From an uncultured Desulfobacteraceae bacterium (lineage in GTDB: Bacteria > Desulfobacterota > DSM-4660 > Desulfatiglandales > HGW-15): DNA of 64,000 bases. The DNA lies in NCBI GenBank assembly GCA_964580575.1, contig CAZOLJ010000015.1, forward strand, positions 1,329-65,328, written 5' to 3'. The position numbers and the translations under genes are program-made. This document shows positions 22,897-37,015 of this stretch, one piece after another. The notes under the pieces were generated by a model. That model saw nothing but the letters and a program-made list of their open reading frames with translations. It was not told the origin of the DNA and made no database searches. How positions within the stretch are numbered: position 1 is the stretch's first letter; each line of letters opens with the position of its first letter.

Positions 22897-24000
22897 ATGA
22901 TTGATACCATTGCCGTTATCGGCGCCGGCAACGGGGGGAAAGCGAGTGCTGTTGATCTCACCCTCCAGGGCAAGCGCGTCCGCCTCTTCGAATTCCCCGA
23001 GTTCAAGAGCAATATCGAAGGACTTGTCGAGCACCCCACCCTGACGGCCACCGGGGCTGTGGCCGGAGAGGGTCGCCTTGATCTTGTGACCACGGATCTT
23101 TCGGAAGCCGTGTCCGGTGCGGACACGATCATGGTCTGCACTCAGGCGCTGGTTCATGACCGGACAGCGCAGGATCTGGCTCGCCTGGTTGAACCCCATC
23201 AACTCGTGATCCTCAACCCGGGTTCCACGGGTGGGGCCCTGCTCTTTGCAAAGAGGTTTCGGGACTCGGGGCTTAAAAAACTCCCCACCTTGGTCGAACT
23301 GGCGACGTTGACCTATGGTTGCCGGGGGCGAGGGTCCACCGTCCATATTCCGGTCAAGGTGAACCGCGTCCTTTACGGCACTCTTCCGGCCGGAGCGGCG
23401 GCGCGGGTGGGGCCTGGACTTGAAGCCCTCTACCCGGGCTTGCGCCGCGGTGCGAGCGTTCTGGAGGCAGGACTGAACAATGCCAATCCCGTCATCCACC
23501 CTCCCATCACGATGCTCAATTCGGCGCTTATCGAGCGAGAGGGGGACCGGAGGTTCTTTTACGGCGACGGCGTCTCCCCTGCAGTGGCGCGGCTCATCAG
23601 GAAACTGGACGGAGAAAGGATGGCCCTTCTGCGCGCCCTCGGTTACCCCGCGCAACCGGACCCCGTGACCTCCGTGGAACAGGGGTACGCGACCAGCACG
23701 GATTACCACGACTGTTACAGGCACGGCCCGGGATTCGCAGAGTTCCGCTTCCCGAACACCCTCGACAATCGCTACTTCCACGAAGACATCGGCATGGGTC
23801 TCGTGCTGTTCAGCTCTCTCGGAAAGATGCTCAAGGTGCCCACGCCCGCGTGCGAAGCGGTGATCAGAATGGGAGAGATTTTGATGGACAAGGACTATTC
23901 CGTAAAAGGACTCCGCACTGCCGAATCCCTCGGGATTGCCGGGCTGACTCTCAAAGAGTTACACGTTTACCTGGAAACAGGGGAAATGCCCCTCCACTGA
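22897..24000 (+). CDS. NAD/NADP octopine/nopaline (opine) dehydrogenase family
   Basis: GAGNGG, ILNPGSTGGAL, NANPVIHP, FYGDG, RYFHEDI and LGKMLKVPTP. Confidence 0.88.
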   Translation: MIDTIAVIGAGNGGKASAVDLTLQGKRVRLFEFPEFKSNIEGLVEHPTLTATGAVAGEGRLDLVTTDLSEAVSGADTIMVCTQALVHDRTAQDLARLVEPHQLVILNPGSTGGALLFAKRFRDSGLKKLPTLVELATLTYGCRGRGSTVHIPVKVNRVLYGTLPAGAAARVGPGLEALYPGLRRGASVLEAGLNNANPVIHPPITMLNSALIEREGDRRFFYGDGVSPAVARLIRKLDGERMALLRALGYPAQPDPVTSVEQGYATSTDYHDCYRHGPGFAEFRFPNTLDNRYFHEDIGMGLVLFSSLGKMLKVPTPACEAVIRMGEILMDKDYSVKGLRTAESLGIAGLTLKELHVYLETGEMPLH

Positions 24001-24167
24001 CACCTGGCTCGCTCCCTCAGCCTTCCCCTCTCCCCCGAATGCGGGGTAAAGAAATGGGGTCAAACGGAACCGAATGCCATGGTTGCGGCTTCCGCCGACC
24101 CGTGAGCGCCGAAGCTTCGGCGGAGGTGTTTGACGCGCTGCGTTTTTCGCGTGCTCTGCGAAGAAGC

Positions 24168-25199
24168 CTAGCGCAGGACAGCGGCCAGCTCTGCCGCCTT
24201 CGGGAAAAGCCCGAAGATCCCGCCGGTGTGCAGAAAAATGATCTGATCTCCGAAGACCCTTGCATCCCGGCGAAGCTCCTGAACCATGCCGAAGAAGGCT
24301 TTGCCTGTGTAAACGGGGTCGAGAAAAAGGCCTTCGGTTGAGGCCAGTTCGACGATAAGGGAGAGCTCCTCCGGTCGTGACTGGGCATAGCCCAGCCCCA
24401 CATAGCCGTCCAGGATCTCGATGTCCGACTCCCGGGAAAAAGAGATGTCGAGCCTGTAGCGAGAGATGCAGTCTTCGCAGATTTTTCCGATCGCTTTGAC
24501 GAAGTAATCCCGGTCGTCGCAAACATTGATCCCAACGATTCTTGCGTTCAGACCCAGAAGCTTTGTCCCCAGAATCAACCCTGCCGTGGTGCCTCCGGAT
24601 CCAGCGGCGTGGAGGATCGTCGTCCGTCGGCTGCTGCCGCGGGGGAGTTTCTTGATGTCCTGCTTCAGTTCGGCGGCGGCGTGAATGTAGCCCCAGGCAC
24701 CGAGGGCATTGGATGCGCCCTCGGGGATCACGTAGGGTTTCGAGCCTGCCCGGCGAAGGCGGTCAGCTTCTCGGGCAAAGATCTCCTCTCGCCTTTTGTA
24801 TTGCTCCGGCGTAATCCACACGATATCACTCCCTGCCAGCCGATCCAGCAGAAGGTTACCTTCAAGCGCAGGCGGGTTGAAGGGGTCCGGGGTTCTGAGA
24901 ATGAGACGAGAGCGCAGCCCCAGCCTTGCCGCTGCCACGGCGGTAGCGCGGCTGTGGTTGGATTGGGCGCCGCCGCAAGTGAGCACGATGTCTGCTGTTT
25001 GATTCAGGGCATCGGCAAGCACGAATTCGAGCTTGCGAACCTTGTTCCCTGTCAGTTCCACGCCGGTGAGGTCGTCCCGTTTGACGTAGAGATCAACCCC
25101 GAGCTTCCCGCTCATTGGTTTGAGCGGCTCAAGAGGAGTGGGAATGTTCGCCAACGGGATGCGGGGCGGATAGGGAATAGAGGCGGCTTTGGACGTCAT
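24168..25199 (-). CDS. D-cysteine desulfhydrase / ACC deaminase family PLP enzyme
   Basis: YVKRDDLTG..LTGNKVRKLE, GGAQSNH, IPEGAS, LDPVYTGKAF and FLHTGG. Confidence 0.9.
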   Translation of the reverse strand: MTSKAASIPYPPRIPLANIPTPLEPLKPMSGKLGVDLYVKRDDLTGVELTGNKVRKLEFVLADALNQTADIVLTCGGAQSNHSRATAVAAARLGLRSRLILRTPDPFNPPALEGNLLLDRLAGSDIVWITPEQYKRREEIFAREADRLRRAGSKPYVIPEGASNALGAWGYIHAAAELKQDIKKLPRGSSRRTTILHAAGSGGTTAGLILGTKLLGLNARIVGINVCDDRDYFVKAIGKICEDCISRYRLDISFSRESDIEILDGYVGLGYAQSRPEELSLIVELASTEGLFLDPVYTGKAFFGMVQELRRDARVFGDQIIFLHTGGIFGLFPKAAELAAVLR

Positions 25200-25311
25200 G
25201 GCAGAACCTCGCGGAGCAAGATTTTTAGGTCTAGCATCATATAGAAAAATGGAATAGGAATAAAGAGGTTTGGAGCCAGAATTGAGCAACATGAAGTGAG
25301 GACTGCCGGTT

Positions 25312-25638
25312 ATGTTTCTTGGACCTGATGATGTGGACCATCATCAGGACGACTACCTCGGCCTGCTGAAGAGCCGCGGGATCGACATCGTCATTGACTT
25401 GAGCGTCAATGAAACCAGAGCCATGCTTGTCGCATCGGACAGGGCAGGGGTCACCGGGAGCTGCCTGCAGGTCGCGGCTGGGCTTCATGCCGCTTTCCGG
25501 ACGGTCGTTGAGGACCCCTTGGAAAAACGGGTGTACTTCGTTGAAGACCTGCTCGGAACAACCTGCGAGCGCCTCATGATGGCCAACCTTCCCATGCAGC
25601 ACGTGGTGGTTTCGAAGAAGCAAACTGCTGTCGGCTGA
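25312..25638 (+). CDS. Hypothetical protein
   Basis: 108 aa with host-like codon usage on the plus strand; no recognised motif. Confidence 0.45.
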   Translation: MFLGPDDVDHHQDDYLGLLKSRGIDIVIDLSVNETRAMLVASDRAGVTGSCLQVAAGLHAAFRTVVEDPLEKRVYFVEDLLGTTCERLMMANLPMQHVVVSKKQTAVG

Positions 25639-25745
25639 AGCCGACAGCTTGAGGGACAGAGGCAAAAAGGCACACAGGGACAATAGGGATAGGGCAGAAA
25701 GGGTTTTCTGCTTTGTGCCTTTGCATCTTTGTCCCTTTGCCTCTT
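25627..25745. repeat. Palindrome plus octamer-periodic inverted repeat, copy 1
   Basis: gctgtcggct-ga-agccgacagc followed by GGCACAAA-like units and their inverse TTTGTGCC-like units; 25627-25657 is the exact reverse complement of 51089-51119. Confidence 0.75.
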
Positions 25746-25759
25746 TCTTGTGGTGAATC

Positions 25760-28123
25760 CTAGCTTTTGGCCAGCAGGGCAGGCGGGAAGTACAAAGAAA
25801 ACACGGTTCCTGCTGATTGATGACAGTCCTGAGTTCCCGAGCAGAACGGGCACTGGCTGATCCTGCCGGGGCAGACATCCGTGTCCTTGAGCAGGTGCTT
25901 GCACCTCGCAGAGGCCATGTCGATCTGGAAATGGTAGCGTTCGGAGAAGATCTTCATTCTGAGAAGATCGGCTCCTTTCCCGCCGGCATTGAAATCAAAG
26001 GGCCTTTTCGACGAGTAGGCCATGGTGTTCTGGGTGTGAAAGAAGCCTTCAAAGATCCTTTTCTGCGCCTCTTGGGGGATGCCGACCCCATAATCGTGAA
26101 CCAGGAGCAAAGCCCCTTCGCCCTTGGCCTGAACCGCAATCTCTATCCTCCCTTCATCCGGCGTGTTTTCAACGGCATTCTTGATCAGCCCGTCGATCAC
26201 CTTCTGAAGGACCTCCTGAGGGATAAAGATAGGCGGTGCAGGGTCAATCTGAGTGAGGATCTCCACCTGGCGATGGGAAAAAGAGGGGCGCAGGGTTTCT
26301 AACCTGTCTTTCAGCACCCGATCCAGCTGAAGGTTCACAGGGGTGGATTCCTTGGGGCCGAAAAGGTCGTCGATCTTTTTCCGAAGCCGTTCGACCCCCT
26401 TGTCATTGCCCGTCTCCTGGGCCAGGAGAACAGCCAGTTCGTCGGAGCACTGATCGAGCAGGAGGGACAGCATTCCATAGGGTTTGCACTGGCGATCCTC
26501 CATGATGTCTTCCACCTGAATCTGAATGGCCTCCATGCGATCGAGGTTTCTCTGAGCCATGTCCACAAAGGGTTTCCAGGTGGCTTCCGGCAAGGTCTCC
26601 ATCTTTCTCCTGAGCACGGCGAGGGCGCCTGAAAGAATGGAGACGGGCGTCCTCAGCTCGTGGGAGAGGTGATTGATCGCCTTGTCCTTGGCCCGGTTGA
26701 GGCTGGTTACCTCGTCGTATGCTTTCTTGAGCTCCGCGGAAACCCGGGCGTTCTCGATGGAGAGGGCTACTGTTCCTGCGATCATTTCGAGCAGGTCGAC
26801 ATCGGCCTGGACAAAGTCTCCCTCTTTTTTGTTGATCGCGCAAAGCACCCCTCTGATTTGCTCATGGCCTCTGAGAGGCACGAGAGCGAGGTTCCGGGTC
26901 TTAAAACCGAGCTTCTTATCCCTCTGTTCATGGATATGTCGATCTGTGGAGGTATCGGACACTATCATGGGTTCCCCTGTCTTGATCACTCTGCCTGCCA
27001 GAAGCTGATCCATGGGGAAACGAGCCTCTTTTACTCTTCTCTCTATGTCGGAGGTGTCATAGGCCGCCCCCAGGATAAAGAATTCCTTCTTTTCTTCGTC
27101 GAGCAGGATGGTCACACACCCTTCGGTGTTGAGAAGTCTTTTCACCTCTCCGTTGACGTAGTCGAGAAGATCTTCGAGATTTGGATATCTTGGCAGAGCC
27201 AGGCTGATGTGAAGCATGGCTTCGTTGATCCGTGCGATTTGCTTCTCCTGCGTGATATCGCGGAATATGGCGATGACGCCGGAAGGTTCTTCCCCCGATT
27301 CCGAGAAGACTGCGGCCCGGATGGCGACATCCAGTATTCGTTCCTCTTTGGTCAGTCTCCGCGACTCGTGGCGGACCAGGATCTTGTCCCTGTAGAGGCG
27401 TTTTAGATTCTCGACGGTTTCCCGTTTGGCCTCTTCAGGCACGAAGGGTATTTTCCTGCCCTCGAGGTCATCGAGCGTCCACCCGAGAACTTTGGTGAAG
27501 CCGGGATTGAGGTAAATGGGGAACCCTTCCATGGTAAAGACACCGATGGGGTAGGGGACGAAGTCCAGAAGGGTTCTAAAACGTCTCTCCGAATTGCGGA
27601 GAGCCTCTTCGGCCAGCCGGCGTTTGGAAACGTCCTGGAACGTTTCGATAGCTCCCACGATCTCGCCGGTTTCATCGATCAAAGGAGCTGCGGTGAAAAA
27701 CAGCCACTGGCCGTTTTCTCCGAGGCTCGAGAAAAAGAGTTCCGCTTCGTACCCTCCTTCCACAAGCACGGACTTTCGACATCGTTTTCCGAAATGCTTG
27801 AGGATTTCTTCTGCAGGAATACGGTCGACGATGTAGTCGACCATGGCGGGGCTGGGCTCTTTGTAAAAGGTCATCCACTGGTTGCTCGTGCCCACCATTT
27901 GGTACGCAGGAATTCCCCTTAGCTTTTCGTAAGCCTTGTTACAGTGGGTGATGACGTGGTTCTTGTCGATCACAAGGGCGGGAATGGCGCTGCTCTGGAT
28001 AATGAGGGAAAGCCTCTTCTCGACCTGCTTCAGAGTCTCCACCTCCCTCCGACATTCGGAGAGTTCTCTTTCCAGCAGGCTCACTTGGCTTGCGAGATGC
28101 TCAGGGGGTTGCTTGGTCGTCAC
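25760..28123 (-). CDS. PAS-PAS-GAF sensor histidine kinase with a Cys-rich insert in the HATPase domain
   Basis: H-box SHELRTP, N-box LIKNAVENT, G1 DYGVGI and G2-like AGGKGADL; PAS and GAF segments. Confidence 0.9.
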   Translation of the reverse strand: MTTKQPPEHLASQVSLLERELSECRREVETLKQVEKRLSLIIQSSAIPALVIDKNHVITHCNKAYEKLRGIPAYQMVGTSNQWMTFYKEPSPAMVDYIVDRIPAEEILKHFGKRCRKSVLVEGGYEAELFFSSLGENGQWLFFTAAPLIDETGEIVGAIETFQDVSKRRLAEEALRNSERRFRTLLDFVPYPIGVFTMEGFPIYLNPGFTKVLGWTLDDLEGRKIPFVPEEAKRETVENLKRLYRDKILVRHESRRLTKEERILDVAIRAAVFSESGEEPSGVIAIFRDITQEKQIARINEAMLHISLALPRYPNLEDLLDYVNGEVKRLLNTEGCVTILLDEEKKEFFILGAAYDTSDIERRVKEARFPMDQLLAGRVIKTGEPMIVSDTSTDRHIHEQRDKKLGFKTRNLALVPLRGHEQIRGVLCAINKKEGDFVQADVDLLEMIAGTVALSIENARVSAELKKAYDEVTSLNRAKDKAINHLSHELRTPVSILSGALAVLRRKMETLPEATWKPFVDMAQRNLDRMEAIQIQVEDIMEDRQCKPYGMLSLLLDQCSDELAVLLAQETGNDKGVERLRKKIDDLFGPKESTPVNLQLDRVLKDRLETLRPSFSHRQVEILTQIDPAPPIFIPQEVLQKVIDGLIKNAVENTPDEGRIEIAVQAKGEGALLLVHDYGVGIPQEAQKRIFEGFFHTQNTMAYSSKRPFDFNAGGKGADLLRMKIFSERYHFQIDMASARCKHLLKDTDVCPGRISQCPFCSGTQDCHQSAGTVFSLYFPPALLAKS

Positions 28124-30927
28124 TTCTTCACCCCTCCCGGCTCGGCGAGCGAGGCGGGCGGAAAAAAGATCGTGAAGGCGGTCCCGCCGGACGCGTGGCA
28201 GTTCTCAATCCTGGAGCAATGAGGACATTGACTGATCCTGCCCGGGCACACGTCTGTGTCTTTGGCAAGGAATCGGCACCTGGAGGAGACCATGTCCATC
28301 TTGAAGTTGTATCTCTCGGAAAAAATTCTCATGCGCAAAAGGTCTGCGCCTTTGCCGCCGGCATTGAAGTCGAAGGGCCTCTTGGAAGAATAGGCCATGG
28401 TATCCTGGGTTGTGAAGAATCCCTCGAAGATCCTTCTCTGGGCATCTTCCGTGATGCCGACCCCATAGTCCCTGACGACGAGTTCCGCCCCCTCGGTTTT
28501 CTTCCTCACATGGATTTCGATTTTCCCTTCATCCGGTGTGTTCTCGATGGCATTCCTCACCAAACCGTCGATCACTTTATTCAACACATCGGGGGGAAGA
28601 AAGATTGCGGGTGTCGGCTCAAAACGGGTGGTCAGGTCCAATTCCCTGTGAGCGAAGTGAGGCTTGAGCTGCTCGATCCTTTCCTTGACCTCCTGTTCCA
28701 GCTTGAGCTCTTTTGAAGCCGTTTCTTTCACAGTGAACAGGTCATCCACCCGCTTTCGGATCTTCTGGATCACGGCTTTCTCTCCGCACTCCTCAGCCAG
28801 GAGGGTCTCCAGTTCGTCGCCGCACTGCTCGATCATGGAGGTGAGAAGTCCCCGGGTCCTGTACTGCTTGTTCTCCATGATGTCCTGCACCTGGTACTGG
28901 ATGTCCACCACGCGATCGAGATTTCTCTGCAGCCTTTCGAGGGTGGGTTTCCAGGTCTCCTGGGGAAGGGCCGCGAGCCTGCGGGTCAGAATGTTGAGGG
29001 ACCCGGACAGAATGGCCACGGGCGTTCGCAGTTCGTGCGACAAATGATTGATCACTTTGTCCTTGGCGCGGTTGAGGCTCGTCACTTCCCGGTAGGCGTT
29101 TTTCAGTTCATGGGAAAATCTCGCGTTTTCCAGGGAGAGCGCCACGGTTCCGGCGATCATGCTGAGCATCTCAATGTCCGTCTGGTCAAAGAGGCCCTCT
29201 TTCTTGTTGATGGCGCACAGAGCACCGATCATGCGATCGCTGCTCTTCAAGGGCACGAGGGCCAGGTTCCTGGTCTTGTACCCCAGCCTCCTGTCCCTCT
29301 CTTCGTGGAGCGATCGGTGCGTGGAGGTGTCGTTCACGATCATCGGTTCCCCTGTGCGGATCACCTCTCCGGCCACGAGCTCGTTCATGGAAAACCGGAT
29401 CTCCCTGGCCCTTTTTTCGGTGTCCATGTCGTCGTAGGCAGCGCCGAGGATGAAGAGATCCCCTTTGATTTCGTCATGGAGGATCGTGAGGGAGCCTTCG
29501 GTGCCCAGAAGCGCTTTGACCTCGCTGTTGATGTAGTAGAGGAGATCCTGCAGGTCCGGGTACTCGGGCAGGGCCATGCTGATTCGGAGCATGGCTTCGT
29601 TGTTCCGGGCGATTCTTTTTTCCTGCGTCACATCCCGAAGGATCACCAGCTCGCCCTCCGGCTCGGCTTGGGACACGGAGAAGACCGCCGCTCGCAGAAT
29701 GACATCGAGGATGCGGCCGTCCTTGGTCATCCGTTTGGTCTCTTCCCGGAGGATCACCTTGTTCTCAAAGAGCTGCTTGATCTCCCGGGTCGTTTCACGC
29801 TCCATGCCGGGTGGCACATAGGGAATCGTTCGACCTTCCAGTTCGTCCAGGCCCCAGCCGAAAACCTCTGAGAAGGCCGGGTTCAGATAAGAGACCTTCC
29901 CCTCCAGGGTGAACACCACGATCGGATAAGGAGCGAAATCAAGGAGCGTCCTGTACCTCTTTTCAGAATCCCTGAGAGCCTCCTCCGCTCGCCTCCGTTC
30001 GGTGACATCCTGTAATGTCTCGATGGCGCCTGTGATTTTCTTGTCGCCATCCATCAAGGGCGCTGCCGTGAAGAAAAGCCACTTTCCTCCGCTGCCCAGG
30101 TCCGGGAAGAAATCCTCCACTTCATAGGCTCCGTCTATGACGCGGGACTTCCTGCACCGGTCTCCATAGCACTGCCTCATGTCTTCTTCGGAGGCTCCGT
30201 CCACAATGAAGTCGGCCATCACGGGCCTTTCTGAAGTGTAAAAAGCCATCCACTGAGCTCTCGCTCCTATGATCTGGCCGGCGCGGATTCCCGTCAGGTT
30301 CTCGAAAGCCCTGTTGCAATGGACCATGGTGTGGTCGGCGTTGATGACAAAGGTGGGGATGGAGGTTCCATGAACCATTTGAGAGAGTCTCTTCTCGCTC
30401 TCCAGGAGAGCCGCTTCCATCTCTCTGTTTTCCGTGACGTCCTGCAGGGTTTCGATGGCGCCGATGAGGTTCGCTTCCGCATCCCGAAGGGGCGCCGCCG
30501 TAATGAACAGCCACTTCCCTTTTTCTCCCATCCTTGGGAAAAAGGCCTCGGCTTCGTAAGCTCCTTTGATGACTTTGGACTTTCGACATTTCCTGCCGTA
30601 ATACCAGACCATTTCTTCTTCAGGAGCCTGGTCCACAATGAAGTCGGCCATGTACGGCCGGGCCGAGGCGGCGGCATCCAACCACTCTTTGCTCCCGAGG
30701 ATCTGATCGGCTGAAACTCCAATGAGGTTCTCAAACGCCTTGTTGCAGTAAGTGATGGTGTGATCCATGTTGATGACGAAGGTGGGTATAGGGCTTCCCT
30801 GGATCATTTGGGGCAAAAATCGCTCTTTTTCTCCAAGGGCCTGTTCTGCGACTCCGGCTTTGGCCGCCTCTTTTTCAAGCTCATGGATTCTCCTTTCCAG
30901 TTCCTCATAGGTCGGCTTGATGGCCAT
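28120..30927 (-). CDS. PAS x3-GAF sensor histidine kinase, paralog of the adjacent kinase
   Basis: KPTYEELERRIHELE start with a GGAGG RBS; SHELRTP, LVRNAIENT, DYGVGI and AGGKGADL; GTGA overlap with the downstream kinase. Confidence 0.9.
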   Translation of the reverse strand: MAIKPTYEELERRIHELEKEAAKAGVAEQALGEKERFLPQMIQGSPIPTFVINMDHTITYCNKAFENLIGVSADQILGSKEWLDAAASARPYMADFIVDQAPEEEMVWYYGRKCRKSKVIKGAYEAEAFFPRMGEKGKWLFITAAPLRDAEANLIGAIETLQDVTENREMEAALLESEKRLSQMVHGTSIPTFVINADHTMVHCNRAFENLTGIRAGQIIGARAQWMAFYTSERPVMADFIVDGASEEDMRQCYGDRCRKSRVIDGAYEVEDFFPDLGSGGKWLFFTAAPLMDGDKKITGAIETLQDVTERRRAEEALRDSEKRYRTLLDFAPYPIVVFTLEGKVSYLNPAFSEVFGWGLDELEGRTIPYVPPGMERETTREIKQLFENKVILREETKRMTKDGRILDVILRAAVFSVSQAEPEGELVILRDVTQEKRIARNNEAMLRISMALPEYPDLQDLLYYINSEVKALLGTEGSLTILHDEIKGDLFILGAAYDDMDTEKRAREIRFSMNELVAGEVIRTGEPMIVNDTSTHRSLHEERDRRLGYKTRNLALVPLKSSDRMIGALCAINKKEGLFDQTDIEMLSMIAGTVALSLENARFSHELKNAYREVTSLNRAKDKVINHLSHELRTPVAILSGSLNILTRRLAALPQETWKPTLERLQRNLDRVVDIQYQVQDIMENKQYRTRGLLTSMIEQCGDELETLLAEECGEKAVIQKIRKRVDDLFTVKETASKELKLEQEVKERIEQLKPHFAHRELDLTTRFEPTPAIFLPPDVLNKVIDGLVRNAIENTPDEGKIEIHVRKKTEGAELVVRDYGVGITEDAQRRIFEGFFTTQDTMAYSSKRPFDFNAGGKGADLLRMRIFSERYNFKMDMVSSRCRFLAKDTDVCPGRISQCPHCSRIENCHASGGTAFTIFFPPASLAEPGGVKK

Positions 30928-31032
30928 GATGAAAAACCTCCGAGTCCAATGAATAAACCAAGTGCGGTAGGGCGTCAAAAACAACCATATTACAGGAGAA
31001 TCGAAATCTCAATCCCCAATCAGCCGGAAACC

Positions 31033-31048
31033 TGGCATGGCATTAGCT
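31033..31048 (+). promoter_or_regulatory. Possible sigma54 promoter
   Basis: TGGCAT-GGCAT-TAGCT: GG-N10-GC spacing is correct, with one deviation from the TTGC consensus. Confidence 0.3.
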
Positions 31049-31148
31049 ACAGCCCTTCCTGCCTCAGAGGCGGACCGGATTTCCCTGTTGAATCCCAAGC
31101 GGCACTTGGTGTTATAATTACTGTCAATGACTGAGCAGAGAGGACCAC

Positions 31149-31422
31149 ATGATATCTGGAGAGACAGACAGGATGCTCATTGGATTGGCGAAGATCGAGA
31201 CGGGACTCTCCAGGGTCTATGAGAAGCTCTCCGGGAAAACCCGCCGGGGTCAAAGCCGACACCCGGAAGCACAAGATGGTCTTGATCGATTACGCAAGAG
31301 GCATCAAGGAGTTCTGCCGCCCCTGCTCCACCCTCAACTCTTATTGGGGTGAAGGGTTGACAGATTGTTGGAATGCCCTTAAGCTGTCTAAACGATTTTT
31401 GCCATTCTGGGTTCACACCTAG
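31149..31422 (+). pseudogene. Disrupted or chimeric small gene
   Basis: MISGETDRMLIGLAKIETGLSRVYEKLSGK (weakly ferritin/rubrerythrin-like helix), then coding-like sequence continues in another frame (KHKMVLIDYARGIKEFC). Confidence 0.3.
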
Positions 31423-31462
31423 AACCTGCGGAAATGGATTTTCACTCAGAAGGAGGTCAGCC

Positions 31463-31999
31463 ATGAAGGATGCGTTGAGGGTGGTTCTCGTCGTGCTGTT
31501 TGTCGTTTCGTTCTTCCCCGCAGCGGCATGGGCAGGCGCGGAAATGGGCCAGGTCCCGTCCAAAGTGGATTTGAAAGATCCTTTGGGCGGCCGTCTTGAC
31601 GGCAAACCCTGGAGCAGCGATGAACTCAAGGGGAAAGTCCATGTGCTCTTCTATGTGGACCCGGATGAAAAGGACACGAACAACGACGCGAGCGAAGCCA
31701 TTGACAAGGAGAAGTTCCCGGCAGAGAAGTTTCAGTCCGTGGCGATCATCAATATGGCCGCGACCTTCATGCCCAATTTCCTGATTTCCTCCTCTGTCAA
31801 GGAAAAGCAGGAGAAGTACCCCAGGACCCTGTACTTGCGCGACTACAAGAAAGTGCTTGTTCAGGAATGGAAGCTGGCGGATGACAGCAGCGATATTCTT
31901 GCTTTCGACAAGTCAGGCAAGATCATCTTCCGAAAAGACGGCAAGCTGTCCCCGGAGGAGATTCAGAAACTCATCAAGGCGATCAAGGATAACCTGTAG
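31463..31999 (+). CDS. YtfJ-like exported thioredoxin-fold protein
   Basis: Signal peptide ending AAWA; VLFYVDPDEKDTN and LADDSSDILAFDKSGKIIF; AGGAGG RBS. Confidence 0.65.
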   Translation: MKDALRVVLVVLFVVSFFPAAAWAGAEMGQVPSKVDLKDPLGGRLDGKPWSSDELKGKVHVLFYVDPDEKDTNNDASEAIDKEKFPAEKFQSVAIINMAATFMPNFLISSSVKEKQEKYPRTLYLRDYKKVLVQEWKLADDSSDILAFDKSGKIIFRKDGKLSPEEIQKLIKAIKDNL

Positions 32000-32080
32000 A
32001 GAACGTGAAGGGCAGCCAAGGCTGTGCCCTTCACGGTTTTTATGCCTTCTCGGTTTGCCTGTGAATCCAGGCTCCCTGAA

Positions 32081-32953
32081 TCACTCCAGGATTTCTCCAG
32101 ATAACTTCTGCAGTATCCGATACTCTATGCTGTCGAAGGAGTAAAAAGGCTTGACGGTTGTCAAGGCCTTATGCTCCAGGATCTGTCCGGTTTCGGTATC
32201 CAGCAGAGCGTACCCATGCAGGGAGAATCTGTATCTTCTCTCCTTTCTGGATGTGCAGACAAAGTCCTCTTCCATCACGGCCACAATCACCTTGCGACCT
32301 TTGAAGGAGCCGAACCCTCTCGTCGCATAACCGATTTTTTCCTTTGGAGGAGAGCACTGTGGAGCGCCCCACAGGTTCTCATAAGCCTGGAGTGCGGCGC
32401 TCATATCCGTCTCTAAAAGAAGACTTCCCTCTTGGACCGGAGAGACGGGGAGCACCGCGGAAAAGCTCCTGAACTGTGACCCGACCAGGACCCTGATCTG
32501 CTCAAAGAGGCGCTTTTCTTCCGGGGAACTGACTTTCATCCCGACGGGTGCGATTTCAAAGTCTTTGGTGGCCCCCTGCTTGTCCCTGCGAGCCCTGAAT
32601 TCCATAAGTGGAGAATTGCCGGTGCTGATCTTTTCCTCCCCCATCACGGCGTTTTCAAGGCTAAATCCCCATAAAAGGGAGTCTCCCGCAGCCGATACCC
32701 TGAGCCGGCCGTAAAGCTCTCCGGAGAAAAATTCATCCTTGTCTCTTACGTTGGTGTGGATTCCGAGTTGGGCGGACAGCTTCACCGCCACAGGCCGATA
32801 TTCGAGAGGAACAGGCGTTTGGATCGATGAAAAGCGGCCTTCGTACATGGGCAAGGTCTTGCTCGAAAGCTCTTCCTGCATGGGCGGGATCGTCTCTGCA
32901 CAGGCGCTAATAAACAAAAAAGCAACGATGATGCAGTATGTTCTGGCGATCAT
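32081..32953 (-). CDS. Hypothetical lipoprotein
   Basis: Lipobox-like FLFISAC; 290 aa. Confidence 0.65.
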   Translation of the reverse strand: MIARTYCIIVAFLFISACAETIPPMQEELSSKTLPMYEGRFSSIQTPVPLEYRPVAVKLSAQLGIHTNVRDKDEFFSGELYGRLRVSAAGDSLLWGFSLENAVMGEEKISTGNSPLMEFRARRDKQGATKDFEIAPVGMKVSSPEEKRLFEQIRVLVGSQFRSFSAVLPVSPVQEGSLLLETDMSAALQAYENLWGAPQCSPPKEKIGYATRGFGSFKGRKVIVAVMEEDFVCTSRKERRYRFSLHGYALLDTETGQILEHKALTTVKPFYSFDSIEYRILQKLSGEILE

Positions 32954-33896: not shown

Positions 33897-34730
33897 TTGA
33901 TGGCTAAGATCGGAATCGCTCTTGGCGGAGGCGGAGCCAAAGGATTGGCCCATATTCCCATTCTTGAAGTGTTTGAGGAATTGGGGATCCGACCGGTGTG
34001 TGTGGCGGGCACCAGTATCGGTGCCATTCTCGGGGTGCTTTACTGCTCAGGCATCCCGCCGAGCCAAACCCGTCGCGAACTGACGGAGGCCAGCCTTTCC
34101 GGGGAGGAGAGGTTGAGAGATCTCTTGGGCAAGCGTGAGATTCTCAAATGGCTCGACTTCGCTCGGTTTCAATTCGATGGAAGCGCGTTGTTGAGAAGTG
34201 ACAGGGTCATGGACATCCTCTTCAGGGATCTGGAACCCCGCCGATTCGAGGACCTTCACACGCCCTTGAAGGTCGTTGCCACGGATTTCTGGGCGCGTGA
34301 ACCCGTTGTCCTGGATCGGGGTGAACTCATCCCTGCGCTGAAAGCCTCCATGGCTGTGCCCGGGGTTTTCCCACCTGTGGAGATCGAGGGTCGTTTGTTG
34401 GTCGACGGCGGCATGGTCAATCCCATCCCTTATGATCTGCTGCCTCAGCAGTGTGACATCACCATCGCCGTTGATGTAGCCGGAAGGCGGACGTCTTCTT
34501 CGGACGCGACCCCCTCCATGGCAGACCTCGTTTTCAATGCTTTCCAGATCGCCGCGCGGAGCATCGTGCAGGAGAAATTGTGCCGCGTGAAGCCGGACAT
34601 CTATGTTGAGCCGGACATTGAGGACATCCGGCTCCTTGAATTTTACAAAGCGGCACAGGTGTTTCGTCAGGCTCAGCCTGCGAAAGAGCAGTTCAAGCGC
34701 GAACTGGAATTGAAGTTGGCGAGGTTTTGA
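33897..34730 (+). CDS. Patatin-like phospholipase
   Basis: GGGGAKG, GTSIG and DGG motifs. Confidence 0.92.
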   Translation: MMAKIGIALGGGGAKGLAHIPILEVFEELGIRPVCVAGTSIGAILGVLYCSGIPPSQTRRELTEASLSGEERLRDLLGKREILKWLDFARFQFDGSALLRSDRVMDILFRDLEPRRFEDLHTPLKVVATDFWAREPVVLDRGELIPALKASMAVPGVFPPVEIEGRLLVDGGMVNPIPYDLLPQQCDITIAVDVAGRRTSSSDATPSMADLVFNAFQIAARSIVQEKLCRVKPDIYVEPDIEDIRLLEFYKAAQVFRQAQPAKEQFKRELELKLARF

Positions 34731-34732
34731 CG

Positions 34733-37015
34733 ATGAAGCCCTTGGCTTTGGAAGAGAGTGAGGTTCTTTTCGGGTCGGATCCCCTTCAGGGGATCGTGGC
34801 GGTTGAACCTTCAGGGGACAAGACTATGCGCCTTTTTCTGAGGCACGGGAAAAAACGGGTCGCCCAGGAGGAGCCGTTCGTCTCCTTCATCCTGGTGGAG
34901 GATGAAAAGCTCATGAAGGGTTTCAAGAGCCCCTACAGGGCCGAACATCTCTCTGCAGCCAACGAATACAGGGTTCTCGCGCTCTTCGAGGGCTGGGAGG
35001 CGTGTCAGAAGGCGAGAGACCATCTTCAGAAACGAACCGGGGAGAGTGCCTCATCGCCTCAAGCGCCCTACCTCTATGTTGCCGATCCGGTCCACCAGTT
35101 TCTGCTTCTCACCGGCAAAACGCTTTTCAAAGGGCTTGCTTTCAAAGACCTTCACCGGATGGCTCTCGATATTGAAACCGCCTGCGCTCCCGGATTTGAA
35201 TTCTCCAACCCGGAAAGAGAGGAGGACAGGATTCTCTCCATCGCTCTGATGGACAATCAGGGCTATTGCGAAGTGATCTTCGGAAAGGACATGGAAGAGA
35301 AGAAAATGCTTGCCTCCCTTGGCGAGAGGATCACCCGGCTCGACCCGGACGTGATCGAGGGACACAACCTCTTCAACTTCGATCTCGAGTACCTCAGGGC
35401 AAGGGCGAAGCGGCACGGGGTCCCTTTGGCGTGGGGCAGGGACGGGAGTTCCCCGCGTATCCGGCGGTCCCGGTTCACGGTGGCGGAGAGAATTATCGAT
35501 TTCACACGCATGGACATTTTCGGCAGGCACGTGGTGGACACTCTGTTTTTGCTCCAGTACTACGATGTCACGGCGCGGGAAATGGAAAGCTATGGTCTCA
35601 AAGCGGCCGCTCAACACTTCGGCCTGGCAGAGGAAGGCCGCACCTACATCGAAGGGAAGGACATCCAGTGGTTCTTCGACCATGACCCGGAGTCGCTCAA
35701 AAAATACAACCTCGAAGACGCGAAGGAGACCCTCGCCCTGTCGGAATTGCTGGGGTATCCCTTTTTCCTGCAAGCCAGGATCTTCCCTTACTCCTACCAG
35801 AACATTTTTGTCCGCGGAAACGCCACCAAGATCGATGCCCTTTTCCTTAGAGAGTACTTGAAGCAGCGTGCTTCCGTCCCTAGGCCCAAAGGCGGCGGGG
35901 AGTTTGAAGGAGGCTACACCGATGTGTTTGTGACGGGGGTAGTGCATCATGTGGTCCACTGCGATGTGGCTTCCCTCTATCCCTCGATTATGCTTGCCTA
36001 CGGCCTCAAGCCTGCGGGCGATACCCTCAATGTCTTTCTTCCCCTGCTTCGTGATTTGAGAGAGTTCCGCCTTGAAGCAAAGAGTCGGGCCAAGGAGGCT
36101 GAAGCCCCCCATGAACACGACTACTACGAGGCGCTGCAGCAGACCTTCAAGATCCTGATCAATTCCTTTTACGGCTACCTCGGCACGGAGCTTCATCATT
36201 TCGCGGACCAGGAGCTGGCCGCTGAGGTGACCCGCAAGGGGAGGGAGATTATTCACAACATGATCGAGTGGCTCAGAAAAGAAGGCGCAACTCCCGTGGA
36301 GATCGACACAGACGGCATTTACTTCCTCCCACCGGAGCGCGTGAAAACGGAAAAGCAGGAGAAGGAACTGGTGGCACGCCTCAACGAGAGCCTGGCAGAA
36401 GGAATTGAAGTCAGCATGGACGGGCGGTACAAGGCCATGTTCTCCTACAAGAGGAAGAATTATGCCCTTCTCGACGAGAAGGGCGGCCTGATGATCAAAG
36501 GGAGCGCTCTTCGATCAAGGGGGATGGAGAAATACCTCAGGGAATTCCTCTCGGAAATGATTCGTTTGCTCCTGGAAGGCAGGGCAGGGGAGATCGAGGG
36601 GTTGCTGAAAAAGGCCATGGCCAGGCTCGAACACCATCAGTTCCCCATTTCCGAGTTAGCGAAAACAGAGGCCCTCAGTGAGTCGCCGGTCATTTACAAA
36701 GAGAAAGTGAAGCAGGGAAAACGAAACCCCGCAGCACTCTATGAACTGGCCCTTGCCTCGGGACGTTCGTACCGGGCCGGCGACCAGCTTTCCTATTACG
36801 TGACAGGGGAGACCAAGAAAGTGAAGGTCTACGAAAACAGCAAGCTGGCTTCCCAATATAATCCTGCGAGCCCCGATGAAAACGTTTCCTACTACCAGGA
36901 CAAGCTGCTCGCTTTCATCGAGAAGTTCAAGGAGTTCCTGCCCAAGGGGGAAACGTCGTTAACCAAGGAACCCAAGAAAGCGAAGAAGCCCCGCACTAAA
37001 GCCCAGGGCACGTGA
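34733..37015 (+). CDS. polB: Family B DNA polymerase with 3'-5' exonuclease domain
   Basis: Exo motifs DIET, HNLFNFD and YNLED; polymerase motifs DVASLYPS, KILINSFYG and IDTDG. Confidence 0.9.
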   Translation: MKPLALEESEVLFGSDPLQGIVAVEPSGDKTMRLFLRHGKKRVAQEEPFVSFILVEDEKLMKGFKSPYRAEHLSAANEYRVLALFEGWEACQKARDHLQKRTGESASSPQAPYLYVADPVHQFLLLTGKTLFKGLAFKDLHRMALDIETACAPGFEFSNPEREEDRILSIALMDNQGYCEVIFGKDMEEKKMLASLGERITRLDPDVIEGHNLFNFDLEYLRARAKRHGVPLAWGRDGSSPRIRRSRFTVAERIIDFTRMDIFGRHVVDTLFLLQYYDVTAREMESYGLKAAAQHFGLAEEGRTYIEGKDIQWFFDHDPESLKKYNLEDAKETLALSELLGYPFFLQARIFPYSYQNIFVRGNATKIDALFLREYLKQRASVPRPKGGGEFEGGYTDVFVTGVVHHVVHCDVASLYPSIMLAYGLKPAGDTLNVFLPLLRDLREFRLEAKSRAKEAEAPHEHDYYEALQQTFKILINSFYGYLGTELHHFADQELAAEVTRKGREIIHNMIEWLRKEGATPVEIDTDGIYFLPPERVKTEKQEKELVARLNESLAEGIEVSMDGRYKAMFSYKRKNYALLDEKGGLMIKGSALRSRGMEKYLREFLSEMIRLLLEGRAGEIEGLLKKAMARLEHHQFPISELAKTEALSESPVIYKEKVKQGKRNPAALYELALASGRSYRAGDQLSYYVTGETKKVKVYENSKLASQYNPASPDENVSYYQDKLLAFIEKFKEFLPKGETSLTKEPKKAKKPRTKAQGT

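Follow-up and report, generated by a model that had tools for sequence, protein, structure and literature searches.

To our knowledge, the histidine kinases that sense redox state or metals read their signal in input domains, be these PAS, GAF or periplasmic. The Fe-S sensor kinases follow this arrangement, with a [4Fe-4S] cluster in a PAS domain of NreB, a [2Fe-2S] cluster in AirS, and a cluster in the GAF domain of the chloroplast sensor kinase CSK/Hik2. In each of these soluble or cytoplasmic kinase modules the cluster is bound by four cysteines, and kinase activity depends on whether the cluster is intact. The adenylate kinases of Gram-positive bacteria and of Desulfovibrio carry a Cys4 metal site in the LID, with a CxxC...CxxC spacing and a structural role only.

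A different location was reported for SrrB of Staphylococcus aureus, a HisKA-type kinase (PDB 6paj) with a redox-sensitive disulfide in its ATP-binding domain (PMC8774646, citing Tiwari et al. 2020). The oxidised form retains about 60% activity, and the cysteines are not conserved even within staphylococci (PMC8774646). SrrB was the only described case found in the literature search in which redox sensitivity belongs to the catalytic domain and not to an input domain. Outside the kinases, the Fe-S cluster loop of endonuclease III and MutY has the pattern Cys-X6-Cys-X2-Cys-X5-Cys, and for a long time the cluster in it was regarded as no more than a structural element (PMC11138216, PMC11722440).

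The window analysed here, a stretch of 64,000 nucleotides from an uncultured Desulfobacteraceae bacterium, encodes two sensor histidine kinases, HK1 and HK2 (Table 1). They are class I enzymes (HisKA plus HATPase_c) with the H, N, G1, F, G2 and G3 boxes intact. Both pass the Pfam cut-offs, with E values of 7e-8 and 3e-8 for HisKA and 42-45 bits for HATPase_c (cut-off 26.4). Across the two proteins, the N box reads NA[VI]ENTPDEG, and the phospho-acceptor histidine of the H box is conserved in more than 90% of the cysteine-loop kinase family described below. The TGA stop codon of HK2 and the GTG start codon of HK1 overlap in a shared GTGA, read off the sequence. The proteins are 60% identical over 768 positions, and a homologue of HK1 with equal length (P0001) is 96% identical to it. 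Gene conversion between HK1 and HK2 was rejected, as the genes share only about 70% nucleotide identity and contain no identical tract.

Table 1. Features of the two-kinase locus (positions in the window; residue numbers refer to the respective protein)
Feature	Position	Strand	Description	Basis
HK1	25760..28123	-	787-aa soluble sensor histidine kinase: PAS x2, GAF, HisKA, HATPase_c with Cys loop	ORF, Pfam
HK2	28120..30984	-	954-aa soluble sensor histidine kinase: PAS x3, GAF, HisKA, HATPase_c with Cys loop	ORF, Pfam
HK1 input region	26753..27583	-	PAS (residues 181-294) and GAF (residues 315-457)	Pfam
HK2 input region	29128..30795	-	PAS x3 (best stretches 64-187, 343-452) and GAF (477-619)	Pfam
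HK1 H box	26645..26671	-	HLSHELRTP (residues 485-493); H488 is the phospho-acceptor	Pfam, sequence
HK2 H box	29020..29046	-	HLSHELRTP (residues 647-655)	sequence
HK1 N and G1 boxes	26078..26179	-	NAVENTPDEG and DYGVGI; catalytic residues intact	sequence, family alignment
HK1 F box, lid and G2 box	25964..26053	-	F box (FEGFF), lengthened ATP lid (HTQNTMAYSSKRPFDF), variant G2 box (NAGGKGADL)	sequence, family alignment
HK2 F box, lid and G2 box	28339..28428	-	F box, lid, variant G2 box	sequence
HK1 cysteine loop R740-H768	25820..25906	-	RCKHLLKDTDVCPGRISQCPFCSGTQDCH	pLDDT 93-98
HK1 loop Cys codons	C741 25901-25903; C751 25871-25873; C758 25850-25852; C761 25841-25843; C767 25823-25825	-	C761 facultative	
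HK1 G3 box S770-A-G-T773	25805..25816	-	directly after the Cys loop; family consensus S-G-G-[TS]	
HK2 cysteine loop R902-H930	28195..28281	-	RCRFLAKDTDVCPGRISQCPHCSRIENCH	
HK2 loop Cys codons	C903 28276-28278; C913 28246-28248; C920 28225-28227; C923 28216-28218; C929 28198-28200	-	C923 facultative	
HK2 G3 box	28180..28191	-	SGGT	sequence
GC-rich hairpin, then T-rich tail	25627..25648	-	112 nt after the HK1 stop	consensus scan; count of such sites in the region not above shuffles

The original prediction, made for positions 25760-28300 (HK1 in full, and HK2 at its C-terminal end), held that both kinases carry a cysteine-rich insert in the ATPase domain where ordinary kinases have only a short hairpin. 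Translation returns both cysteine peptides letter for letter, with the common motif RC-x9-CPGRIS-x-C-x2-C-x5-CH. The insert also lies where it was placed, between G2 and the last strand: it follows the G2 box with its helix (NAGGKGADLLRMKIFSERY) and the penultimate strand (FQIDMAS), and it directly precedes the G3 box (SAGT/SGGT). In keeping with an insertion, 143 residues align over the 104 positions of the Pfam HATPase_c profile. At this position, the 28 other histidine kinases of the same genome read 'I.V.S-xxGxG[TS]-F', and the distance from the serine at the strand end to G-T is 4-5 residues in them and 33 in HK1. From G1 to the C-terminus these 28 kinases have 0-2 cysteines, and the six members of the family in this genome have 4-7. 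Five of the 12 cysteines of HK1 fall within 27 of its 787 residues; together with the conservation in homologues, this clustering indicates that the motif is not a product of chance.

Two further peculiarities that had been pointed out in the same domain are borne out. The ATP lid is extended, the distance from the F box to G2 being about 5-6 residues longer than in the 28 ordinary kinases, and the G2 box does read G-K-G-A-D-L; in 141 of 143 family members the second Gly of GxGLGL has given way to Asp or Glu. Near-invariant residues of the lid and G2 region in the family are Y703, F711, A713, G714, G715, G717 and L720 (HK1 numbering).

Conservation of the loop was assessed in 143 sequences taken from clusters at 50% identity and reaching down to 37% identity. 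In this family alignment, four of the five cysteines are invariant (C741 in 141 members, C751 in 142, C758 in 143 and C767 in 140, in HK1 numbering). The motif is kept in 120 of the 120 closest homologues and in about 140 of the 143 diverse representatives, with a spacing of C-x9-C-x6-C-x8-C (9/6/8) that is constant in nearly all of them. R740, P752 and G753 are near-invariant as well, acidic residues beside the ligands (D749, E/D765-766) are conserved, and the family consensus can be written as R-C-x9-C-P-G-x4-C-x8-C, followed by S-G-G-[TS]. The proposal of a unit of five cysteines and a histidine stands only for C741, C751, C758 and C767, and the larger ligand set was rejected on conservation. 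C761, the CxxC partner, is present in 73 of 143 members, with Ile or Val elsewhere and at least 14 state changes on the family tree; the histidine lacks conservation, its position after the last cysteine being occupied most often by Leu, Arg and Phe. A cysteine pair in the PAS domains of HK1 and HK2 is confined to close homologues (0 of 150 representatives).

The cysteine motif sets apart a discrete family of kinases, found mainly in Desulfobacterota. The family comprises at least 189 clusters at 50% identity and is present in 42 of the 301 sampled genomes of the phylum (about 14%), frequently in several copies per genome; its named relatives are nearly all Desulfobacterota MAGs. The genome to which the window belongs contains six family paralogs, which score at E <= 6.5e-54 with a match reaching residue ~192 of 198; its other 28 kinases score at E >= 5e-10 and align only up to residue ~110. 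When the C-terminal 86 residues were searched by tblastn in 72,556 plasmids, nothing matched.

A Pfam scan of ten diverse family members found PAS and/or GAF domains directly upstream of the kinase core in all ten. The cysteine site is a hallmark of the kinase core that is paired with many different inputs. The original prediction went further and placed sensing in this site rather than in an input domain. That claim does not hold, since all members examined have retained PAS and/or GAF, HK1 and HK2 themselves carrying 2-3 PAS domains and a GAF domain; therefore, no extra sensor is needed to explain these proteins.

In the AlphaFold model of the DHp and catalytic (CA) domains (pLDDT 88.8), the loop is predicted with a pLDDT of 93-98 as coil and one short helix between the last two strands, and the 26-residue stretch held by the cysteines is almost entirely coil. 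An isolated 48-residue loop fragment is also predicted to fold (pLDDT 85.5). Outside the loop, the model is that of an ordinary kinase, and a Foldseek search with it returned HK853, ZraS, WalK, CpxA and MprB at the top, with E values of about 1e-13 to 1e-10. The 48-residue loop model gave no PDB match at E <= 10 in Foldseek, a query this short having little power. Sequence searches of the PDB with the CA domain and with the family profile yielded ordinary kinases only, with all alignments ending before the loop. Since no solved look-alike of the loop emerged from this search, there is no structural precedent for either Zn or Fe-S, and the loop was not found described in any Pfam or NCBIfam model, in a solved structure or in the literature.

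With the canonical HisKA/HATPase_c kinases (Thermotoga HK853, WalK/YycG, ZraS, PhoR and MprB), HK1 and HK2 share all six boxes and, in the model, the four-helix-bundle type of DHp domain and the Bergerat ATP-binding fold. Sequence alignments from the family to these proteins end at the ATP lid, before the loop. Unlike them, the family has a turn before G3 that is about 28 residues longer and contains four invariant cysteines, a lid lengthened by 5-6 residues, a G2 box of the form G-x-G-x-[DE]-L and a DHp domain modelled with two extra helices. In NreB, AirS and CSK the cluster lies in the N-terminal input domain, whereas the Cys4 site of HK1 and HK2 is in the catalytic domain by G3, separate from PAS and GAF; the four cysteines that NreB has in its N-terminal PAS domain are not found there, as the invariant cysteines of both kinases lie after G2. 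SrrB comes closer: it is of the HisKA type, its cysteines lie in the catalytic ATP-binding domain, and they make its activity depend on redox state (PMC8774646). It has, however, two cysteines that form a disulfide, without an insertion or a metal, in contrast to the four invariant cysteines in a dedicated loop, and the 6paj chain aligns to the family only as far as the lid.

As had been proposed, the most economical reading of four invariant cysteines with fixed spacing in a stretch of almost pure coil is a metal or Fe-S site within the catalytic domain. Sequence and model together make a metal centre of some kind in the Cys4 loop very likely. It is also likely that the four thiolates bind one metal centre that is an obligatory structural part of the ATP-binding domain in this Desulfobacterota-centred family. 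We infer metal binding, the identity of the metal and its coupling to nucleotide binding from the same data. Given a metal, an Fe-S cluster has roughly an even chance and Zn2+ slightly less than that, and the two may be called about equally likely. The flanking acidic residues suit neither type of centre well, and sequence alone cannot separate Zn from Fe-S motifs (PMC11138216).

The specific reading that survives best, held tentatively and somewhat below an even chance, is a structural Zn(Cys)4 staple without a signalling role, which would only stabilise the enlarged G3 hairpin and would have been acquired once in the lineage. Small Cys4 loops, such as this one of 27 residues, are by base rate more often zinc sites, and the loop is modelled as a compact unit. 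The four cysteines are never lost and are present with every input architecture, which is typical of structural sites; invariance of this degree among paralogs that differ in their inputs speaks for a structural role and is no evidence of a sensing one. Half of the family has a knuckle-like CP[FHY]C element. The LID of adenylate kinases offers a parallel, as there, too, four cysteines and their metal pin down an excursion from a nucleotide-binding phosphotransferase in some lineages, ordinary residues taking their place in others, but the LID site differs in its CxxC...CxxC spacing, its fold and its exclusively structural role. The 9/6/8 spacing is harder to accommodate: it lacks a CxxC pair, which is unusual for Zn(Cys)4, and where zinc ribbons or knuckles would have two CxxC or CPxCG knuckles, the loop has at most the single C758/C761 CxxC, whose partner cysteine is dispensable and was repeatedly gained or lost. 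In addition, the loop model matched no zinc-ribbon or knuckle structure in the Foldseek search, short as the query was, and, to judge from the organism names, the hosts inhabit settings in which sulfide holds free zinc at very low levels.

The alternative metal would be a [4Fe-4S] or [2Fe-2S] cluster labile to O2, NO or redox change, which, in line with the original prediction of direct control, would act directly on both ATP binding and autophosphorylation and make the catalytic domain a redox sensor alongside PAS and GAF. This is a somewhat doubtful reading, for which several hints can be named. The invariant ligands lack a CxxC knuckle, strict anaerobes make up nearly all of the named relatives, the loop lies directly against the G3 box, and hydrophobic or aromatic residues at positions 743, 744, 755, 760 and 761 could shield a cluster. 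The cysteine spacing of HK1 and HK2 includes the C-x2-C-x5-C of the FNR and Wbl sensors, and NreB, AirS and CSK are precedents for histidine kinases under Fe-S control. SrrB adds a redox-sensitive catalytic domain (PMC8774646). A further hint, by analogy, comes from the spacing C-x6-C-x2-C-x5-C, which in HK1 (C751, C758, C761, C767) and HK2 (C913, C920, C923, C929) is identical to that of the [4Fe-4S] loop of endonuclease III and MutY, likewise short and mostly irregular (PMC11138216). The hosts of the two loops are nevertheless unrelated folds, HATPase_c here and the C-terminus of an HhH-GPD glycosylase there. The third cysteine of the pattern (C761) is missing in half of the kinase family, including the paralogs L005 and L006 of the same genome, and the extra upstream C741 is invariant. 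The loop is also short for one that would have to enclose a cubane, the kinases have no linked genes for Fe-S assembly or redox functions and no neighbour is conserved at 80 related loci, and a structural role explains the invariance in all paralogs equally well.

A metal-free dithiol/disulfide switch, in which one or two reversible disulfides would lock or release the G3 hairpin, is improbable. The cysteines are clustered, and SrrB sets the example of a disulfide that can tune activity from the ATP-binding domain (PMC8774646). A single disulfide, however, does not need four invariant, rigidly spaced cysteines in a coil loop, and the reduced form, normal for the cytoplasm of a strict anaerobe, would leave about 26 strongly constrained residues without a core. 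The SrrB cysteines are not conserved even among staphylococci, whereas those of the loop are invariant in the family (PMC8774646). Also improbable is a docking surface for a partner protein (a response regulator or the DHp domain) with incidental cysteines, for although the six paralogs are all orphans without a receiver domain nearby on their contigs, so that partner specificity must be encoded in the kinase core, and two extra DHp helices are modelled in the family, this leaves unexplained why invariance falls on exactly the four cysteines, the remaining positions of the loop vary freely among the 143 members, and no neighbour gene is conserved.

Returning to the metal centre, a mechanism can be outlined. 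In this family the tight hairpin turn before G3 is exchanged for a loop of about 28 residues with almost no regular secondary structure, held by the four cysteines, and the centre would sit beside the G3 box, the family-specific lid and the G2 box, near the nucleotide pocket. If O2, NO or peroxide removed or oxidised the centre, the G3 hairpin would unfold, ATP binding and autophosphorylation would stop, and signals from PAS and GAF would pass only when the cytoplasm is reduced. Such putative redox gating of the kinase is plausible, and a real signalling consequence of this kind is possible rather than probable. Its most specific form, an O2- or NO-labile Fe-S cluster packed against the G3 box whose integrity is a precondition for nucleotide binding and forms an AND gate with PAS and GAF, is rather unlikely.

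Whatever its chemistry, the putative metal site would be hard-wired into the ATP-binding domain across a whole kinase family, unlike the disulfide of SrrB, which is poorly conserved. Were it redox-labile, a strict anaerobe would be able to shut down several signalling pathways at their catalytic step once the cytoplasm is oxidised, a design principle that would be new to two-component systems. An Fe-S gate would be the first cluster in the catalytic core of a histidine kinase and not in an input domain, and all members of this orphan-kinase family of sulfate-reducing bacteria, six of them in this genome, would have it in common. A structural zinc would still be an undescribed, diagnostic signature, and the loop, together with the variant lid, the G2 box and the extra DHp helices, would define a subfamily fit for a Pfam or NCBIfam model of its own.

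Regarding the gene neighbourhood, HK1 and HK2 are orphan kinases without an adjacent response regulator gene. The genome has 81 receiver domains, none of which is on the contig of the window (C15), and a receiver gene occurs within 6 kb at 14 of 80 related loci. Neighbour clustering at these 80 loci revealed no conserved partner genes, the best candidate being a second small kinase at 18 loci. A link of the kinases to sulfide supply through the adjacent PLP enzyme (D-Cys desulfhydrase/ACC deaminase family) was dropped because this enzyme is not a conserved neighbour. Antisense ORFs (e.g., 25817-26302 and 26660-27406 on the plus strand) were set aside as by-products of the G+C-rich coding strand, since homologues back the minus-strand genes throughout. 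Rfam detected no RNA element in 24000-32500, and the scans for promoters and terminators did not exceed shuffles; the hairpin listed in Table 1 is the probable end of the two-gene unit.

The ATP-binding (CA) domains of two neighbouring soluble sensor histidine kinases, HK1 and HK2, contain a cysteine-rich loop between the G2 helix and the G3 box. The loop strings quoted in the original prediction were found exactly in both proteins, with the pattern C-x9-C-x6-C-x2-C-x5-C-H, and the proposed placement holds: the loop follows the G2 box, a helix and the penultimate strand (FQIDMAS), and leads straight into G3 (SAGT/SGGT) and the final strand. As an internal control, the same query was used to retrieve the genome's 28 other histidine kinases. 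They are short at this position, as had been claimed, reading '...I.V.S-xxGxG[TS]-F.v.lP', with 4-5 residues from the strand-end Ser to G-T versus 33 in HK1. Between the G1 Asp and the C-terminus, the controls have 64-85 residues, exceeded only where a receiver domain comes after, and 0-2 cysteines, versus 108-130 residues and 4-7 cysteines in kinases sharing the loop (the family). The extended ATP lid (5-6 residues shorter from G1 to G2 in the controls) and the altered G2 box (GGKGADL versus GTGLGL) were likewise confirmed. Because of this longer C-terminal region, Pfam HATPase_c fits 143 residues onto 104 profile positions.

Features of the kinase pair and its surroundings in the window
Feature	Position	Strand	Description
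PLP-dependent enzyme	24168-25292	minus	Pfam PALP; directly downstream of HK1, beyond the hairpin
Hairpin after HK1	25648-25627	minus	GC-rich, with T-rich tail; sequence scan
HK1	25760-28123	minus	ORF, 787 aa
HK1 Cys loop	25820-25906	minus	R740-H768; exact string in sequence
HK1 DHp region	26356-26731	minus	residues ~465-590
GTGA tetranucleotide	28120-28123	minus	TGA stop of HK2 overlapping GTG start of HK1
HK2	28120-30984	minus	ORF, 954 aa; co-directional with HK1
HK2 Cys loop	28195-28281	minus	R902-H930; exact string in sequence
YtfJ_HI0045-family protein	31373-31999	plus	divergent, upstream of HK2; no link to kinases seen
Patatin-like phospholipase gene, then immediately family-B DNA polymerase gene	33897-37015	plus	polymerase with exonuclease domain

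Conservation was assessed in a CA-region alignment of 143 sequences: HK1, HK2 and 141 representatives that share 37-63% identity with HK1. In HK1 numbering, C741 (141/143), C751 (142/143), C758 (143/143) and C767 (140/143) are essentially invariant, and in virtually all sequences they are spaced by 9, 6 and 8 residues. R740, P752, G753, I/V755 and S756 beside them are near-invariant, and the G3 box follows as S770, G771, G772 and T/S773. The proposed site of five cysteines and a histidine is thus reduced to four cysteines. C761, the second Cys of the CxxC, occurs in 73 of the 143 sequences and is otherwise Ile (30) or Val (26), while H768 is variable (Leu 30, Arg 17, Phe 17). On a family tree built without the loop columns C761 changes state at least 14 times, which makes the fifth cysteine facultative; the own-genome paralogs L005 (CPFIKDKEDC) and L006 (CPFIKSREEC) are of the four-Cys type. 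Y703 and F711 of the family-specific lid and an acidic D/E719 in G2 (141/143) match the cysteines in conservation. Another own-genome paralog, L004 (region G000:C22:34011-34592), has an extra C-terminal tail past the last strand with two further cysteines (…DDKSCAPAESEEKNEPVCPDIFA).

With the HK1 CA region as query, 2830 protein clusters built at 90% identity passed a cut-off of E <= 1e-5, and the best 120 of these all have the motif. An exhaustive HMMER scan over 1.84 billion representatives (50% identity) gave 189 proteins at E <= 1e-30. The count rises to 608 at E <= 1e-10, and at E <= 1e-3 there are about 41,000 generic kinase matches. The own genome has six members, HK1, HK2 and four on other contigs, all with E <= 6.5e-54 and alignments reaching the query end; 44 orders of magnitude in E separate them from ordinary kinases, which aligned only to the F box. 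Across the phylum, the family occurs in 42 of 301 evenly sampled genomes (31 of 201 genera), often in several copies. The best 80 loci in species-representative genomes come nearly all from MAGs named Desulfobacteraceae, Desulfobacterales, Desulfatiglandales, Desulfosarcina, Desulfobacula, Desulfotignum, Desulfarculaceae or Thermodesulfobacteriota, apart from one Candidatus Vecturithrix and a few with no label beyond 'Proteobacteria'. A single copy is present in 2 of the 9 genomes of the small Vecturithrix phylum. A search of 72,556 plasmids found no match to the C-terminal 86 residues.

An AlphaFold2 model of HK1 residues 465-787, based on a 100-sequence alignment, reached a mean pLDDT of 88.8 and a pTM of 0.83. 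Its CA part forms the usual alpha/beta sandwich, with Foldseek matches to HK853, ZraS, WalK, CpxA and MprB (E 2e-13 to 1e-10). The loop (model residues 276-306, pLDDT 93-98) lies between the last two strands as coil interrupted by a single helical turn (I-S-Q) and by a short helix, T764-S770, bearing C767. Since C741 comes immediately after the penultimate strand, C741 and C767 would stand at the base of the excursion, with C751 and C758 inside. A 48-residue fragment of the two strands and loop still folds alone (pLDDT 85.5); as a short query, it gave no Foldseek match in the PDB. Sequence and profile searches of the PDB yielded no solved kinase aligned across the loop. The DHp (the HisKA dimerisation/phosphoacceptor region) exceeds the usual length by about 48 residues, and the model has four helices (466-510, 513-541, 547-571, 576-588) between GAF and CA where two are usual; the segment is kept across the family (consensus RNLxRLxxIQxxxxDI).

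A stretch of about 26 residues that is nearly devoid of regular secondary structure, with few invariant residues other than cysteine and four rigidly spaced invariant cysteines, points to a metal-stabilised mini-domain. This reading is further favoured because these proteins are cytoplasmic in strict anaerobes, where one would not expect structural disulfides. The metal site claimed for the catalytic domain is therefore very probable, whichever metal it holds.

The predicted centre may be an Fe-S cluster. No CxxC knuckle occurs among the invariant ligands, whereas one is present, so far as is known, in nearly all structural Zn(Cys)4 sites. The family is restricted to anaerobes, and positions 743, 744, 755, 760 and 761, which are hydrophobic or aromatic, offer potential shielding for a cluster. 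HK1, HK2 and half the family also match the Cys-X6-Cys-X2-Cys-X5-Cys pattern of the endonuclease III / MutY [4Fe-4S] loop (PMC11138216). The centre may equally be a zinc site: the base rate for small Cys4 loops favours zinc, the loop is short, and C761, the third cysteine in the endonuclease III-like pattern, is dispensable. Zn and Fe-S motifs are inseparable from sequence, and Fe-S sites have repeatedly been mis-called zinc (PMC11138216). The lack of paired knuckles speaks against zinc-ribbon proteins, and the position of the invariant cysteines outside the PAS domains against NreB-type Fe-S kinases.

HK1 has two PAS domains and HK2 three, followed in both by GAF, HisKA and HATPase_c; Pfam found no transmembrane or receiver domain. 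NCBIfam gave only generic partial matches (PhoR, PnpS, AtoS and similar), all far under cut-offs. With all defining boxes and the fold present, HK1 and HK2 are bona fide HisKA/HATPase_c kinases, and since their catalytic boxes are all intact, family members are, as judged from sequence, working kinases and not pseudokinases. The suggestion that the site replaces input-domain sensing did not hold, as HK1, HK2 and 10 of 10 diverse members scanned have GAF and/or PAS directly upstream. The predicted site belongs to the kinase core and does not stand in for a sensor. A structural requirement is argued first, because the four cysteines are invariant across paralogs with different inputs. As the loop is contiguous with G3 and accompanied by a remodelled lid and G2 box, loss of the predicted metal centre would be expected to prevent nucleotide binding. 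A gate responding to redox state or O2, added to the PAS/GAF signals, would be a reasonable consequence, and it is proposed only tentatively.

Each N-terminal PAS domain also carries a Cys pair (HK1 C61/C115; HK2 C80/C133 and C223/C272). Its pattern, 'HCN[KR]A ... about 50 residues ... CRKS', occurs in 59 of 120 close homologues and 0 of 150 diverse family representatives, and may mark a lineage-specific cofactor or redox site.

The nearest functional precedent found is S. aureus SrrB, reported to have a redox-sensitive, metal-free disulfide of two cysteines in its ATP-binding domain, poorly conserved even among staphylococci (PMC8774646); the present family instead has four invariant cysteines. 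Neither a Pfam or NCBIfam model nor a published description of the loop was found in the databases and literature searched, where this feature of HATPase_c kinases is so far undescribed.

All six own-genome paralogs are orphans: of the 81 receiver domains in the genome, the window's contig carries none, and only 14 of 80 related loci have a receiver gene within 6 kb. No neighbour gene is conserved across these 80 loci, including the PALP enzyme, whose sequence suggests a D-cysteine desulfhydrase / ACC deaminase. HK1 and HK2 are 60% identical in protein over 768 positions and about 70% in DNA, and nucleotide comparison revealed no identical tracts shared between them. The overlap of their reading frames suggests translational coupling of the two paralogs. 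Among the 78 related loci whose kinase was clustered (80 kinase ORFs), only about 2 show a tandem arrangement within 6 kb, one example being the related locus L007.
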